NCBI GenBank assembly: GCA_030754595.1
Contig: JASLZZ010000050.1
Coordinates: 1 to 58,283, forward strand
DNA: 58,283 bases
DNA from: Nitrospinota bacterium
GTDB lineage: Bacteria > UBA8248
Direction: 5' to 3'
Shown here: one piece after another, positions 13,312-57,538 of the stretch
How positions within the stretch are numbered: the first letter of the stretch is position 1
Layout: each line of letters starts with the position of its first letter
Position numbers and translations under genes: made by a program
Notes under the pieces: generated by a model
What the model was told of the DNA's origin: nothing
Database searches by the model: none
What the model saw: the letters and a program-made list of their open reading frames with translations, nothing else

Positions 13312-14712
13312 ATGCCACTTCCCGTAATCGTCATCGTAGGACGCCCCAACGTGGGGAAGTCCACCCTCTTTAATCGCCTTATCGGCCGGCGGCAGGCCAT
13401 TGTAGAAGCCTCGCCGGGCGTGACCCGGGACCGCCACTATGGCCGGGGGGAGTGGGAGGGAACCCCGTTTCTCGCTGTGGACACCGGCGGTATCACCGAT
13501 GCCGAGGAGGACCCCTTCAGCCCGCTGATCAACCGCCAGGCCGCCGCCGCTATCGAAGAGGGCGATGTGGTGATCTTCATGCTGGACGGCCGCGAGGGGG
13601 TGACTTCGGCGGACGAAAATATTGCCGGGATGGTGCGGGTTACCGGGAAACCGGTCCTGCTCGTCGTTAACAAAACTGACGCAAACCAGGCGCGGGAGGG
13701 AGTTTGGGATTTTTTCGGGCTCGGCCTGGGCGAGCCACGTAGCATCTCGGCCGAGCATGGCGCGGGCGTAAGCGATTTGATCGATGAGGCGCTGGGAATG
13801 GGTCCCGGAGAGGAGCCCGAGCCTTCCTCCGGGGACGGGGAGATCCGTGTCGCTGTCGTCGGCCGGCCCAACGCCGGCAAATCCTCGCTAATCAACTCCC
13901 TGCTGGGCGAGGAGCGCATCCTCGTCAGCCCCGTTCCGGGGACCACCCGCGACCCGATCGACTCTCTTTGCCGCCAGGGAGAGACCCTCTATCGCTTCGT
14001 GGACACCGCCGGAATCCGGAAAAGGGGAAAAGTCGGGAACAACAAGGCCGATGTCGTGAGCATGATCCTTGCCTTCAGGAGCATCGAACGCGCCGAAGCC
14101 GTCTTGTTGGTGGTGGACGCAACCGAGGGACCGAAGGCCATCGACGCCCATATTGCCCGGCACATCGTCGATTCGGGCCGCGCCTGCGCCGTATTGCTGA
14201 ACAAATGGGACCTGGTCGTAAAAGACGAGAAGAGCTTCGATGAAAACGTTCAGTTGGTTCACCGGAAACTCATTCACATCGATTTCGCGCCCGTGGTTTC
14301 AATTTCCGCGCTGAGCGGGCAGCGGACGGACAGGATTTTCGGCCTGATCGACCTGATTATCGCTTCCCACCGCCGCCGCGTCTCGACCGGAAAGCTCAAT
14401 CAGGCGTTCAATCGTTGGACGAGGGAGCATCCACCCCCCTCAGGCCGGACCGGCCGCCGCCCCAACCTTCTCTATGCCACCCAGGCCTCGGTCGCCCCGC
14501 CTCAATTCGTCGTTTTCGCCTCTCGGGCAAAAAACCTGCCCGAGGCGCAATACAGCCGCTTCATCGAAAACCGTTTGCGCAAGGAATTCGATTTCGAGGG
14601 GACGGCGGTTCGCGTGAGCTTCAGGAAACGTATGTTGAAAAAAGGCAGCGGCGGCGCCAGGCGGGGAAGGGGAGAGAAACCCAAGAGCCGTCCTTTCCGG
14701 CAAAAGCGCTGA
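13312..14712 (+). CDS. der: Ribosome biogenesis GTPase Der (EngA)
   Basis: Two G domains: GRPNVGKS/DTGG and GRPNAGKS/DTAG; C-terminal KH-like domain. Confidence 0.97.
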   Translation: MPLPVIVIVGRPNVGKSTLFNRLIGRRQAIVEASPGVTRDRHYGRGEWEGTPFLAVDTGGITDAEEDPFSPLINRQAAAAIEEGDVVIFMLDGREGVTSADENIAGMVRVTGKPVLLVVNKTDANQAREGVWDFFGLGLGEPRSISAEHGAGVSDLIDEALGMGPGEEPEPSSGDGEIRVAVVGRPNAGKSSLINSLLGEERILVSPVPGTTRDPIDSLCRQGETLYRFVDTAGIRKRGKVGNNKADVVSMILAFRSIERAEAVLLVVDATEGPKAIDAHIARHIVDSGRACAVLLNKWDLVVKDEKSFDENVQLVHRKLIHIDFAPVVSISALSGQRTDRIFGLIDLIIASHRRRVSTGKLNQAFNRWTREHPPPSGRTGRRPNLLYATQASVAPPQFVVFASRAKNLPEAQYSRFIENRLRKEFDFEGTAVRVSFRKRMLKKGSGGARRGRGEKPKSRPFRQKR

Positions 14713-14723
14713 CTTTTCCTGAT

Positions 14724-15512
14724 CTAACTCCTGTCTTTCGGCGGCCGCTTTTCGCCCGGCTCTCCATCAACGAAAATATCGTCCACACGCTCGGGGTAGA
14801 AGGCCAGCAGACCTCTGATTTTCGGACATTCCGGTATCGGGTTCGGGTAGCTCCAAACGATATCCTCGAAAACCTCTCCGCCCAACTCGGCCGACCAATA
14901 CACCGCGGTCCCCTTGTAGGGGCAAACGGAAGTGCGCTCGGTTTGGGTCAATATCTCCATCCGAACATCTTCCCCGGGGAGGTAGTAGCGGGGCGGCAGG
15001 CCCGTTTCGAATAGAATATGAGGGCGGCGGCTTTCGGCAATTGTCTCTCCCGCCAGTACAACGCGGATATGGCGCGAGCTTTTCAGCACATCGACCCGCT
15101 TGTAGGGGTCCCTTGGGTGGAGGAATACCTCCTCGTCCTCTTCGTACCATGCGTCCAACCGGTTCCAGTAAAAGGCGATATATTTCGAAATCTCGGGAAC
15201 GCTTTCGATGGGGTTCTCGTAGCTCCAAACCGCGTTTTCGGCCGTCCGGTCCCGGACGGTAAGCGTCCAATAGGACGCATCTCCCTTTACGGGTCAGTGG
15301 GTGCTGTTATCGGTCCGCTCCATGAGATCCATCCGGACCTCCTCGCGGGGAAAATAATAAACCGGGGTGTGCCATGCCTCGCGCATTAACAAGGCTTGTC
15401 GGCTGTCGGCGATAGTTTCACCCCCAAAGAGCACCCGCACCCTCCTGGGGCACACCTCGTTGTGGACCCAATGTTCCTCCTCCGCGCTAATTCCAGCCGG
15501 CCTAGGCGCCAT
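14724..15512 (-). CDS. Tandem DUF427 protein, probable selenoprotein (in-frame TGA at 15296-15294 = U73)
   Basis: ORFs 15294..15566 and 14724..15158 are in one frame, joined across a single TGA: STH-U-PVKGDASYW, while the second domain reads TSV-C-PYKGTAVYW. ATG at 15512 has a GGAAGGGAG RBS. Confidence 0.85.
15263..15278 (-). promoter_or_regulatory. Candidate SECIS hairpin for the DUF427 gene
   Basis: GCGTCC-TATT-GGACGC stem starts 16 nt after the UGA; a second hairpin CCGTCCG-GGAC-CGGACGG follows. The first loop lacks the G typical of bacterial SECIS loops. Confidence 0.45.
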
Positions 15513-15932
15513 TATCCGTCTCCCTTCCGCAAGTGAATTGGTTATCTTCGGGACACTCATATCCAAATAAAAGGGTATTGGGCAACCACGCTGGATCAGG
15601 TGGCCGAATTAGCCAGTTCCGCGGGCGGGGAGTCATGCATTCGCCACATAGGGCAGGGGGGGAACCTCTCCAATTTCCCATTACCTTTTCCCGCCTGCAC
15701 CCAGCACCGTTCCCATTCAGAAAAAAGCGATGAGTATCAATTGTTTATGGCATCAAAAACTTGAAGCCTAGCTTTAAGCACCCACCTCCAAATCTTTCAT
15801 TATGATTGACAAAATAGGTATTCGAATGGCACGATTACTTCAGGTTTATTCTAGATATAAGGGTTTGCGATTCTTTATGACACACTGGGTTTTTTCTCCA
15901 CTCATAATTCGAAATTAAAGGAGTTCATTTTT

Positions 15933-18023
15933 ATGGCCGCGCTGGAGGTAGGGGCCCTTCGAAACGTGGGCTTTTTGGGCGAAGGAGGCAACGGGAAAAC
16001 TTCTCTTGTCGAGGCCTGCCTTTTTACCGCAGGAAGTACGGACCGGCAGGGAAAGGTCGATCAGGGCAATACCATCCTCGACGGAGAACCCGAAGAAATA
16101 AACAGAAACTCCTCGATAACCGCCGCCGTCAGTTTCGCCGACTGGAATAAACACCATCTCAACCTTTTGGACACTCCTGGCTACTCCAATTTCATCGCCG
16201 AAACCGTAGCCTGTATCCGCGCCATGGATAATTCCGTCATCGTGCTGAATTCCCATGACGACCCCAAGGTCACGACAGAGAAGGTATTCAGCTGGGCGGG
16301 CGAGGAAAAAATTCCCCGTTTTATATTCGTCAACCACATGGACCACGAACAGGCCGATTACCTCGGCGCATTGCAAAAAGCGGAATCCCTTCTCGGCACC
16401 CGGGTGGCGGCGCTCCAGTTGCCCATCGGGAGCGGAGAGGATTTCCGCGGGGTAGTGGACCTGGTCTTGGGAAAGGCGTTCACATACAAGACGGACGAGA
16501 GCGGCAAGGGCAGCGAGGAGGATATCCCCGCCGAGCTTGCCGACACCTATGAGGAAATGCGGGGAAAACTAATCGAATTCGCCGCCGAGGCCGACGAGGC
16601 GCTCTTGGAGAAATATCTCGAAGGAGAAGAATTGACATCCGATGAATTCGTCGGTGGATTAAAGCAGGGAATCTTGGAAGGTTCCTTTCTTCCCGCCCTT
16701 TGCGGATGCGGGGTGAAAAATATTGGGACCGACGCCCTTCTCGATGCCCTGGTTAAATACGGCGCCTCTCCGGACGTCAGGTCCTTTGTCTCGGCAAGCG
16801 CGGGCGAGGACAATGAGATTGCCGTAGAAGCGGACCCTGATGCACCGTTCAGGGCATTGGTGTTCAAGACCGTTGTGGATTCATTCGCCGGAAAATTGAA
16901 TATATTCAGGGTGATGTCCGGTTCGATATCCGCCGACTCTTCGGTCCTGAACCCCAACAAAGACGAAAAGGAGCGGTTGGGGGCACTCGTATATATTCAG
17001 GGGAAAAATCAACAACCCGTTTCCGGCAATCTTGTACCGGGCGATATCGCGGCGGTGGCTAAACTCAAGGTCACCGAAACCGGCGACACCCTTTGCGACG
17101 AAAAAGTCAGCGAAAAGTTCAATTCCATCCAGTACCCGACCCCGGTGATTTCATATGCCATCGCTCCCAAGAGCAAAGGAGACGAGGAAAAACTCAGCAC
17201 CGCCCTGAAGCGAATGCAGGATGAAGACCCCGTTTTGACCACCGGCAGGGATACCCAAACCAACGAGTTGCTTCTTTCGGGCCTGGGCGTACTCCACATC
17301 GAGGTCGCCATCAATCGCATCAAGCGAAAATACAATGTCGAAGTTGAAATGCGAACTCCTCGCGTTCCCTACAGGGAGACCATCAAGGGCAAAACCAAGG
17401 TTCAGGGGCGCTATAAGAAGCAAACCGGCGGGAAGGGACAGTTTGGCGATACGTGGCTCGAGATTGAACCGCTTTCCAGGGGCGACGGTTTTGAATTTAT
17501 CGATAAAATCGTCGGCGGGGTGATTCCCAAGACCTACATACCGGCCGTCAAGAAGGGGATTGTCGAGGCAATGGAAACCGGCGCCCTCGCGGGCTATCCG
17601 GTTACCGACCTCAAGGTGACGCTGTTCGACGGAAGCTATCACAATGTCGATAGCTCTGAGATGGCGTTTAAAATTGCCGGTTCGATGGGTTTTAAAAAAG
17701 GTGTGGCGGGTTGTAAGCCCACTTTGCTCGAGCCCATCATGAACATGGAAATTACCGTTTCCGACGATTACATGGGGGACATTATCGGTGACATGAATTC
17801 AAGACGCGGGCGGGTCATGGGAATGGACCCCGCTCCGGGCGGCAAACAGACCATCCGGGCGCAGGTGCCAATGTCGGAGGTGCTTAATTACGCTCCCTCG
17901 CTCCGCTCTATGACCCAGGACCGCGGCGATTTCTCGATGGAGTTTTCCCACTACGAAGAAGTTCCGGGGCAGATGGCCGAAAAGGTGATTTCGGAGGCTG
18001 TCGCCGCCAAGGAAGAGGAATAA
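15933..18023 (+). CDS. fusA: Elongation factor G paralog (EF-G2-like)
   Basis: 696 aa five-domain EF-G (KKQTGGKGQFG, DGSYHNVDSSEMAF, LLEP) with divergent G motifs; not in an rpsL-rpsG-tuf context. Confidence 0.88.
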   Translation: MAALEVGALRNVGFLGEGGNGKTSLVEACLFTAGSTDRQGKVDQGNTILDGEPEEINRNSSITAAVSFADWNKHHLNLLDTPGYSNFIAETVACIRAMDNSVIVLNSHDDPKVTTEKVFSWAGEEKIPRFIFVNHMDHEQADYLGALQKAESLLGTRVAALQLPIGSGEDFRGVVDLVLGKAFTYKTDESGKGSEEDIPAELADTYEEMRGKLIEFAAEADEALLEKYLEGEELTSDEFVGGLKQGILEGSFLPALCGCGVKNIGTDALLDALVKYGASPDVRSFVSASAGEDNEIAVEADPDAPFRALVFKTVVDSFAGKLNIFRVMSGSISADSSVLNPNKDEKERLGALVYIQGKNQQPVSGNLVPGDIAAVAKLKVTETGDTLCDEKVSEKFNSIQYPTPVISYAIAPKSKGDEEKLSTALKRMQDEDPVLTTGRDTQTNELLLSGLGVLHIEVAINRIKRKYNVEVEMRTPRVPYRETIKGKTKVQGRYKKQTGGKGQFGDTWLEIEPLSRGDGFEFIDKIVGGVIPKTYIPAVKKGIVEAMETGALAGYPVTDLKVTLFDGSYHNVDSSEMAFKIAGSMGFKKGVAGCKPTLLEPIMNMEITVSDDYMGDIIGDMNSRRGRVMGMDPAPGGKQTIRAQVPMSEVLNYAPSLRSMTQDRGDFSMEFSHYEEVPGQMAEKVISEAVAAKEEE

Positions 18024-31081: not shown

Positions 31082-31747
31082 TCACCCACCTGGCGGCGCC
31101 TGGGGGAACTCGCCGGGCCAGCGCTCGGCCATTTGGACGATATAGGCCCTCAAGTCATCGGGGTCCTGGCGGCGGCTGTCGCTGATGCTCTCCACCCGGC
31201 CGTCGTCCTCGAGCGGAATCCGCAGGGCGTCCTGGAAGCGGTTGCGCATGTTGAAATAGGTGATGACCATCGTGAGCTCAACGACCTCGGCGGGTGAATA
31301 TTGGCGGTGCACCTCCTCGAACACATCGTCGCGCGCCTTGGCCGTGTTGAGCGTCACATGCTCGGCCCAGAGGATCGCCGCCCTCTCGCGGCCGTCAAAA
31401 AGGGGCGAGTCCATATAGGCGTCCGAGGCGATGGTTTCAATCTGCTCGTTCGTGATTCCCGCCGATTGACCAAGGGCGGTGTTGTGCGCGAGTCAGTAGG
31501 CGCACCCGTTCAGGTGGCTCGTCTTGATGACGGCCATCTCCTTGATCTTCGTCGGCAGGGTGGTTCCCAGACCCTCGCGCATCAGCGCGACCGTCAGCGG
31601 GAGGATCATCTTGGCCACATAGGGCTGGTGGGCCATCACCCTGAAGGAGTTCGCCACCCTCCCCAGGAGCCGGGTCACGCCCTCGAAAAGGGCCGTCGCC
31701 TCTCCCCTGCCCTCCTCGGGCGGAATCGGGCGGATTCTCGCCTTCAT
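31082..31747 (-). CDS. AhpD-like (CMD family) protein, probable selenoprotein with CxxU (TGA at 31495-31493 = U85)
   Basis: ORFs 31493..31747 and 31082..31414 are in frame: TSHLNGCAY-U-LAHNTALG...ERAAILWAEHVT...EVVELT...YFNMRNRF. Confidence 0.92.
31459..31479 (-). promoter_or_regulatory. Candidate SECIS hairpin for the AhpD-like gene
   Basis: CCGCC-C-TTG-GT-CAA-TC-GGCGG starts 14 nt after the UGA, with a GU-containing apex. Confidence 0.6.
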
Positions 31748-44827: not shown

Positions 44828-45229
44828 TCATTTCTCCTGTTTCCAGTCCCCTTTTTCTTCGTCCCACAGATCGAGCACTTCCTTGGCGGCGTAGAGCGCG
44901 TGGTTCGTCTTCGGGAATCCGATATAAGGCGCGCAGTTCAGGATGGTGTCGATCACCTCGCCCCTCGTCCCCCCGCGGTTCAGCGCCCCCCGGACGTGCA
45001 TCTTCACCTCTCCGGGGAGGTCCTGTGCGGCAGCGGTGGCGATGACGATCAGCTCGCGGAACTTCATGTCGAGGTGCGGCTGGTCCCACATCTGTCCAAA
45101 ACAGTATTCGTGAATGGCCCGCGCATGGGACGGGGCGATCTCGTTCAACTCGTTCCACCGCCCGGTGCCCTCGTCCCTGAATGCCTCGTCCCGGATCTCT
45201 TTTCCCCTGGCGTATTCTTGCTCGCTCAT
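44828..45229 (-). CDS. Carboxymuconolactone decarboxylase family protein
   Basis: EYCFGQMW..LDMKFRELIVIA..HVRGALNRG..APYIGFP motif. Confidence 0.9.
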   Translation of the reverse strand: MSEQEYARGKEIRDEAFRDEGTGRWNELNEIAPSHARAIHEYCFGQMWDQPHLDMKFRELIVIATAAAQDLPGEVKMHVRGALNRGGTRGEVIDTILNCAPYIGFPKTNHALYAAKEVLDLWDEEKGDWKQEK

Positions 45230-57046: not shown

Positions 57047-57538
57047 TTATTTTTTTCGGGCGCCCGATTTTCTCTTCGCTCCGGCGGTCTTTTTCGCCTT
57101 GGTCAATTTCGCCTTGATAGCGGGCGGCAGCTCGCCGGCCTTTTTTCCGCGCTTGAGCGACGGGAAAATATCGTTGGCGGTGCGCGCCGCCTGAAGCATA
57201 TAGGGCATGCCGCAGTATGTGGCCATTTGTAGGATGACCTCCATGATCTCACGCTTGGTGGAGCCGCAGTTCCAGGCGGCCTGGATATGGGTGCGGAGCT
57301 GAGGGTTGGCGTTCGCCATGACGCAAGCCGCCACGGCGCAGAGCTCGCGCGTCTTCTGCGGGAGCACATTCCGGTCGTAGAGCCCTCCGTAGCAAAACTC
57401 CATGAACATCTTCATGAAAGCGGGGTCGGCCCAATCCGCCATGTCCGCGGCGATCCCCTCGGTGAACTCCTTGTTCCACAGCATCGTGCCGCGCTTGAGG
57501 GCGCGGGGCGGAATTTTGACGTTCTTTCTCGGCGGCAT
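57047..57538 (-). CDS. Carboxymuconolactone decarboxylase family protein with basic C-terminal tail
   Basis: EFCYGGLY.R..LPQKTRELCAVA..HIQAA..QMATYCGMP; Lys/Ala-rich tail. Confidence 0.88.
   Translation of the reverse strand: MPPRKNVKIPPRALKRGTMLWNKEFTEGIAADMADWADPAFMKMFMEFCYGGLYDRNVLPQKTRELCAVAACVMANANPQLRTHIQAAWNCGSTKREIMEVILQMATYCGMPYMLQAARTANDIFPSLKRGKKAGELPPAIKAKLTKAKKTAGAKRKSGARKK

Follow-up and report, generated by a model that had tools for sequence, protein, structure and literature searches.

A tandem DUF427 gene of a Nitrospinota bacterium with an in-frame UGA that is very probably read as selenocysteine

Tandem DUF427 proteins in their cysteine form, in which PF04248 occurs twice, are found in Alphaproteobacteria, Binatia, Chloroflexota and other groups and are annotated only as DUF427 or as uncharacterised. 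A gene of this architecture lies on the minus strand at 14724..15512 of contig JASLZZ010000050.1 from a Nitrospinota bacterium (the whole stretch analysed, 58,283 nucleotides [nt] in length, is referred to below as the window). Sequence comparison leads us to conclude, with high confidence, that this is a genuine selenoprotein gene in which UGA codon 73 is read as selenocysteine (Sec). The predicted protein has the same length, architecture and conserved residues as the Cys forms, with which it shares 55-66% identity, but the Cys forms have TGC or TGT at position 73 and a complete downstream hairpin is found in none of 67. The crystal structure of a DUF427 protein from Rhodobacter sphaeroides (3DJM) has the same fold as our model of the tandem protein; however, it consists of a single domain and has Cys where the tandem protein would have Sec.

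A second comparison is offered by the SelD, AhpC/TSA-like (UxxC), AhpD-like (CxxU) and Rdx/SelW-like genes of the same genome, which likewise have UGA at a conserved Cys position, a hairpin within the coding region and the same decoding machinery. These families differ in that they are published and have a thioredoxin-like or AhpD redox motif with a second Cys 2-3 residues away, whereas the tandem DUF427 protein has a beta-tent fold and neither CxxU nor UxxC. MsrB, with the mammalian beta-tent selenoprotein MsrB1 (SelR), belongs to the same general fold class, with modest structural matches (Z 5.9 for human MsrB1, 3MAO, and 4.9 for S. aureus MsrB), but there is no sequence relationship (PF04248 is the sole Pfam match), no zinc site and no MsrB motif. 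At the RNA level, the locus resembles the Sec insertion sequence (SECIS) of the E. coli fdhF type as that model is commonly given, in which a stem-loop within the open reading frame (ORF) directly follows the UGA and the apical loop is approximately 20 nt downstream; the differences are that the first hairpin does not carry a G-rich loop and that another conserved hairpin comes after it. The bSECISearch criteria are described in the accessible part of PMC12013277.

The gene and its parts are as follows:

14724..15512, minus strand: tandem DUF427 gene, candidate selenoprotein gene; ATG 15512-15510 to TAG 14726-14724, 262 codons plus stop, with one predicted Sec codon
15294..15296, minus strand: UGA codon 73, predicted Sec (U of U-P-V-K-G) from conservation, Cys alignment and other assemblies
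15165..15440, minus strand: DUF427 domain 1 (residues 25-116) with predicted Sec73; PF04248, 109.6 bits, 1 TGA inside
14790..15068, minus strand: DUF427 domain 2 (residues 149-241) with Cys197 in C-P-Y-K-G; PF04248, 120 bits
14922..14924, minus strand: Cys197 codon TGC, domain-2 counterpart of residue 73 by self-alignment; Cys in 80/80 tandem homologues (best 80 of 560)

The ORF listing splits this locus into products of 90 amino acids (aa; 15566..15294) and 144 aa (15158..14724). The first-pass annotation had read the apparently split gene as one frame, and this proves correct: TGA 15296-15294 is the sole internal stop of the minus-strand frame 15512..14724, and the 262-aa read-through product reads ...DNSTH-U-PVKGDASYW in domain 1 and ...RTSV-C-PYKGTAVYW in domain 2, in agreement with the motifs STH-U-PVKGDASYW and TSV-C-PYKGTAVYW originally given. 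The whole read-through protein matches PF04248 (DUF427) over the gathering score in two stretches (231 bits, E 7e-70). The same annotation had used domain 2 as an internal control that places the UGA on the Cys, and BLASTP of domain 1 against domain 2 (42% identity over 101 residues, gapless, E 2e-30) does set U73 opposite C197.

The Cys correspondence extends to homologues. When each species was represented by a single genome, a scan confirmed 560 relatives; the counts below refer to the best 80. Position 73 is covered by 79 of these, with Cys in 71, TGA in 4, His in 2 and Ser in 2, and all four TGA homologues are labelled Nitrospinota or are close to them. The equivalent position of domain 2 is less variable, being Cys in every one of the 80. 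The closest relatives that carry a name are metagenome-assembled genomes (MAGs) labelled Nitrospinota or Nitrospinaceae, with 87-97% identity, which assigns the window to this group. In 3DJM, C-P-L-K-G-E-A-S-Y aligns with U-P-V-K-G-D-A-S-Y of the predicted Sec protein, and the TGA is thus aligned with Cys in 71/79 tandem homologues, in the crystal structure and in the protein's own second domain. The closest full-length entry in the protein database is a Cys form with 66% identity, from which it is evident that annotation truncates the Sec forms; gene callers evidently divide the tandem DUF427 gene in two in all Nitrospinota genomes examined.

We searched the read-through protein in 41 genomes around that of the window, and 19 had matches. 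Every own-family match has one in-frame TGA: these come from 14 other genomes of genera g1, g2, g3, g5, g6, g7 and g9 and share 57-97% identity. In the translated loci, the TGA is at the same codon in 15/15 own-family orthologues (7 genera), always within U-P-x-K-G. A sweep of the phylum (51 genomes) brought no hits beyond these: it yielded 15 Sec forms, 4 stop-free forms in a sister family, and no form in g8 (0/23) or g4 (0/4). The TGA at codon 73 is also covered without difference by contigs of three other public metagenome studies; one of these contigs is almost the same along 8.8 kb and possibly represents the source from which this DNA came. The triplet is therefore not an error of this assembly, nor is it unique to it, an objection that the first-pass annotation had foreseen.

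The coding sequence is conserved on both sides of the TGA. Leaving aside the orthologue with the frameshift, the truncated orthologue and two that run off their contigs, 11 of the 15 Sec orthologues were compared pairwise. Their median dN/dS is 0.22 (codons 16-72), 0.24 (codons 74-117) and 0.21 (codons 118-250), with dS near saturation (medians 0.9-1.4) and with 10, 7 and 15 of 55 pairs, respectively, dropped for undefined dS. These figures are rough yet far below 1, and clearly suggest purifying selection either side of the TGA.

Two orthologues depart from the common form and appear damaged, both in fragmented assemblies. In G014 (L041), a 1-nt deletion right after U-P-V-K-G is followed by a compensating insertion approximately 50 nt further on; the A-S-Y-W motif is out of frame, yet both hairpins are retained at the RNA level. 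In G019 (L042), the final part of domain 1 runs straight into the tail of domain 2, so that this Sec form has one domain only. A metatranscriptome contig of 172 nt maps to 14730-14896 only, which is too short a stretch to show that the UGA region is transcribed, and could also stem from carried-over DNA.

The genome has the machinery for Sec incorporation. All four of selA, selB, selC and selD are found over curated cut-offs: tRNA-Sec at 73.6 bits (anticodon TCA, ARAGORN), selB at 364 bits, selA at 552 bits, and selD at 345 bits with a TGA of its own at the G-G-U-G-S-K site. Across the phylum, selA is present in 49/51 genomes, and the two without a match are 67% and 79% complete. TGA is the commonest stop codon of the genome, ending 1148/2763 ORFs of at least 300 codons, and at least six orthologues use it to end the tandem DUF427 gene itself; TGA is therefore not reassigned. 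Profile probes of three families gave further in-frame TGA candidates: 8/16 AhpC/TSA matches (U-x-x-C), 10/23 CMD/AhpD matches (C-x-x-U) and a single Rdx/SelW-like gene.

Three candidate RNA structures follow the UGA:

15263..15278, minus strand: SECIS candidate hairpin 1, GCGUCC-UAUU-GGACGC; stem starts 15 nt after the UGA (nt +16), loop 21 nt after
15242..15259, minus strand: SECIS candidate hairpin 2, CCGUCCG-GGAC-CGGACGG; starts at nt +35, loop starts 41 nt after the UGA
15283..15293, minus strand: mini-hairpin CCC-GUAAA-GGG directly 3' of the UGA, or the 5' strand of a longer stem; 95% paired, RNAalifold alternative

Hairpins 1 and 2 are located where they had been claimed to start, at 16 and 35 nt after the UGA. 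The consensus of hairpin 1 in Sec forms is GCGUCC-UAYU-GGACGC, and hairpin 2 begins three nt further on. The 6-bp stem of hairpin 1 is complete in 12/13 distinct Sec sequences vs 0/67 Cys sequences. When 14 Sec sequences are aligned, without the frameshifted orthologue, 98.8% of cells are paired in hairpin 1 and 87.8% in hairpin 2. Hairpin 2 has two compensatory pairs (CG 8, GC 5, UA 1; CG 13, UA 1), and its covariation score of 0.100 was reached by 0/500 shuffles, a control that is inflated by relatedness. Comparison of Sec with Cys forms is the stronger test, as the Cys forms encode much the same A-S-Y-W-T motif: the Sec forms average a minimum free energy of -27.9 kcal/mol over the 57 downstream nt, as against -18.5 for the Cys forms and -17.5 for the corresponding domain-2 stretch of those Sec proteins, and regional folding energies in Sec vs Cys forms are -11.7 vs -5.4 for hairpin 1 and -12.6 vs -8.2 for hairpin 2. 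A four-fold-degenerate stem position is also fixed: Ala79 is GCG in 11/11 sequences, with the equivalent Ala203 being GCC in 8, GCG in 2 and GCA in 1. RNAalifold favours a longer stem around hairpin 1, formed by CGGG and the CCCG that comes right after the UGA; this stem and the mini-hairpin are mutually exclusive alternatives. The loops of hairpin 2 (GGAC, GGAU, GGGC or GGG) resemble by eye those that follow the other candidate Sec codons of the genome, which are GGUC, GGA, GGC and AGGU at approximately 17-21 nt from the UGA (also by eye).

The comparative evidence supports the following mechanism. Codon 73 UGA is very probably decoded as Sec by the organism's SelA/SelB/SelC/SelD system, directed by conserved RNA within the coding sequence: a 6-bp hairpin 15 nt after the UGA and then the covarying second hairpin. 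Sec thereby replaces the conserved Cys of C-P-x-K-G in domain 1, with domain 2 retaining its Cys.

Several points weigh against this reading, beginning with the near-saturated dS given above. Because the orthologues are related to one another, counting them does not amount to counting independent events. A rapid maximum-likelihood tree built from 58 tandem proteins has the Sec forms in three groups, with the backbone unresolved, and is compatible with a single Cys-to-Sec origin. The apical loop of a canonical bacterial SECIS contains a G and is located approximately 16-37 nt from the UGA. The UAYU loop of hairpin 1 falls within this range, at 21 nt, but lacks the G that is typical of bacterial SECIS loops and of the genome's other Sec genes, and the G-rich loop of hairpin 2 is 41 nt from the UGA, as opposed to the shorter distance estimated by eye in those other genes. 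It is speculation that hairpin 1 is a folded insert, which would put hairpin 2 at a normal distance. A search of 15100-15400 against Rfam (E <= 10) gave no match, a result that is uninformative in that the library was found to contain no matching bacterial SECIS model. There is no constant neighbour of tandem DUF427 among the 150 nearest neighbours of the fetched homologue loci, and we therefore draw no functional conclusion from gene neighbourhoods. Finally, class-level relatives with His and a degenerate motif, and two Chloroflexota proteins with Ser, argue against a strict need for Cys or Sec at residue 73.

The His forms belong to the sister family (L034, L038, L039 and L040, in genomes G029, G033, G030 and G032). 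Their domain-1 motif is degenerate (HPKLG or HPHRG, with Lys and neighbouring residues lost) and domain 2 has C-P-Y-K-G, which looks like decay of the domain-1 site. In the His form of G033, Arg stands in place of the domain-2 Cys. Two accounts of the His forms were rejected: they are not the sister group of the Sec forms, as the tree sets them with Cys forms of Binatia and Myxococcota, and neither they nor the absent genes reflect loss of the Sec machinery, as the phylum genomes with selA include those with His forms.

The protein was modelled with AlphaFold (44 homologues; pLDDT 89.4, pTM 0.78). U73 ends strand 64-73, and P-V-K turns into strand 77-86, placing residue 73 at the tip of a beta-hairpin in the model. 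The model superimposes on 3DJM with Z 18.7 and a root-mean-square deviation of 1.4 A over 113 residues (Foldseek TM 0.86). Its further matches are beta-tent proteins: Mis18/yippee (Z 8-9), the RIG-I C-terminal domain (6.6), cereblon (6.1) and, more weakly, human MsrB1 as noted above and Mss4, TCTP and Gfa (approximately 4). These matches agree with the assignment of DUF427 to the beta-tent fold in the accessible part of PMC4287342. The conserved columns are the equivalents of Cys/Sec, Lys76, Arg60, Glu45, Tyr81 and Trp82, with one conserved Cys per domain. Our reading is that each domain may have its own site around these residues, and that the domain-1 site may have been upgraded to selenium in this lineage. 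No function for DUF427 is assigned in the literature searched.

In the proposed mechanism, Sec73 would be the reactive centre of domain 1, most likely acting through its selenol as the nucleophile of a redox reaction or of S/Se transfer, and domain 2 would provide either another site, based on sulfur, or the resolving partner. Sec/Cys pairs are generally known for redox or nucleophilic roles, and on this general ground we put the chances of such a role for Sec73 at about even. Sec can also serve as a metal or cofactor ligand, as in formate dehydrogenase and [NiFeSe] hydrogenase. It is unlikely, but of the rivals the one that survives best, that Sec73 and Cys197 are ligands of this kind rather than redox nucleophiles, a question that concerns function only. 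Residues C, U, H and S, each a possible ligand, all occur at position 73, and the C-P-x-K-G turn presumably resembles a zinc-knuckle C-P-x-C-G minus one Cys, which would favour ligation. Other beta-tent proteins also bind zinc at their hairpin tips, but DUF427 is systematically without a zinc site (both in the accessible part of PMC4287342), and only one Cys is conserved per domain. The His forms, too, argue against ligation: the rest of their motif is also degenerate (K76 and its neighbours are changed), a pattern that suggests loss of the site rather than a swap of ligands.

A broader proposal, which we regard as doubtful, is that DUF427 is an unrecognised class of chalcogen (Cys/Sec) enzyme built on the beta-tent. 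Sec73 and Cys197 would lie opposite one another in a pseudo-dimer and pass through an intramolecular selenenylsulfide cycle, the substrate would be a sulfoxide or a small S/Se compound, perhaps a thio- or seleno-imidazole such as ergothioneine, and the SelB of Nitrospinota would recognise the two hairpins as a SECIS of distinct architecture.

With respect to decoding, the UGA could be a true stop in a split or decaying gene, leaving a 72-residue N-terminal fragment and a single-domain protein that starts at the internal TTG 15158. The two products of the ORF listing fit this exactly, the protein database holds no full-length form closer than 66% identity, and G014, with its compensated frameshift after the TGA, and G019, which lacks domain 2, could be seen as decay. 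Nevertheless, we find this explanation very improbable: the stop occupies the same codon in all 15 orthologues of seven genera and coincides exactly with the conserved Cys, codons 74-117 have a median dN/dS like that of the rest of the gene although a split gene would leave them untranslated, and the 72-residue fragment would, according to the model, sever domain 1 in the middle of a beta-sheet. Read-through of the UGA without Sec, by a near-cognate tRNA (Trp or Cys) helped by RNA structure or under a variant genetic code, is similarly far-fetched: downstream RNA structures can stimulate stop-codon read-through and hairpin 1 is without the usual loop G, but TGA is the commonest stop of the genome and also ends the tandem DUF427 gene in several orthologues, the Sec machinery is complete, TGA also stands at textbook redox positions (UxxC or CxxU) in approximately 20 other genes, and the pairing of TGA with Cys in homologues is the signature of Sec.

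As had been supposed from the sequence alone, the tandem DUF427 gene does not belong to any of the classic selenoprotein families. Neither DUF427 nor PF04248 appears in the 119-family selenoprotein inventory of May 2026 (PMC13188914, Table 1), and NCBIfam, which includes many selenoprotein-specific models, has 0 matches for the read-through protein. Full-text literature searches found no relevant paper joining DUF427, PF04248, NTP_transf_9 or COG2343 with selenoprotein; one text match to DUF427 plus selenoprotein was rejected as a false match to DUF4277. DUF427 is not among the new families in the accessible part of the deep-Sep paper. The BSepDB supplement has 0 matches to DUF427, PF04248 or COG2343, but it is an organism list without any 'DUF' term and is uninformative on families. 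As far as these searches reach, DUF427 is thus not in print as a selenoprotein family; the gene belongs to a well-known kind of system, although its two-hairpin element is a little out of the ordinary. A natural Cys-to-Sec swap is one of the few signs of a chemically reactive residue that can be had from sequence only, and replacement at residue 73 reduces the question of DUF427 function to experiments on one residue. In addition, the two-hairpin arrangement may widen the working model of the bacterial SECIS used by prediction tools.

The surroundings of the gene comprise a candidate ribosome-binding site and two flanking genes:

15520..15524, minus strand: Shine-Dalgarno-like GGGAG, 7 nt upstream of the ATG; candidate, read from the sequence
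13312-14712, plus strand: der (EngA GTPase), flank of the tandem DUF427 gene
15933-18023, plus strand: EF-G paralogue, flank of the tandem DUF427 gene

The gene is alone on the minus strand, convergent with der and divergent from the EF-G paralogue, both of them housekeeping genes. These flanks are shared by the same-genus relatives L044, L045 and L051 and not by L046. The commonest neighbours of the tandem homologue loci are MarR (9 loci), AefR-like TetR (9), HAD_2 (7), zinc ADH (4) and AhpC/TSA (2), mostly in closely related MAGs.

Ergothioneine offers a lead only. COG2343/DUF427 is co-encoded in 5.7% of ergothioneine/selenoneine-type synthase clusters (accessible part of PMC13674229, Table 1). 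In the genome of the window (G000), an EgtD gene (390 bits, over cut-off) adjoins an EgtB-like gene that is split in two frames (C130:19327-22499), and a second EgtB-like gene scores 321 bits, below cut-off (C23:6247-7500). Judging from these genes, the organism may be a producer of ergothioneine or of another thio- or seleno-imidazole of this kind. There are no egt genes near the tandem DUF427 gene, those named being on other contigs.

The other candidate selenoproteins of this genome are on contigs C65, C17, C109, C43, C110, C114, C30, C64, C137, C102, C122, C131 and C45. Two TGAs occur in one Prx-like gene (C109:8334-8717), within W-U-P-Y-U (UxxU). None of 17 molybdopterin-enzyme matches to an FdhA query in this genome has a stop, giving no indication of a Sec-containing FdhA. 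A de novo selenoprotein scan based on codon-usage scores and hairpin energy produced a noisy set of 317 candidates from which the DUF427 gene was absent; it was dropped in favour of the three-family probes. Nitrospinota-type bacteria are marine nitrite oxidisers, and one more protein that depends on selenium would strengthen the view that their proteome is rich in this element. Genomes labelled Nitrospinota are among the selenoprotein-richest in BSepDB (accessible part of PMC13326102).

Another gene of the window is probably a selenoprotein gene as well: an AhpD/CMD-like gene (PF02627) at 31271-31720 on the minus strand has TGA 31495-31493 within N-G-C-A-Y-U-L-A-H-N (CxxU), and a CUUGGUCAAU-type hairpin is located approximately 20 nt downstream of this TGA. 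AhpD-like paralogues, this gene among them, form a cluster at approximately 31.3-32.5 kb of the window, with further copies at 44879-45133 and 57173-57424.

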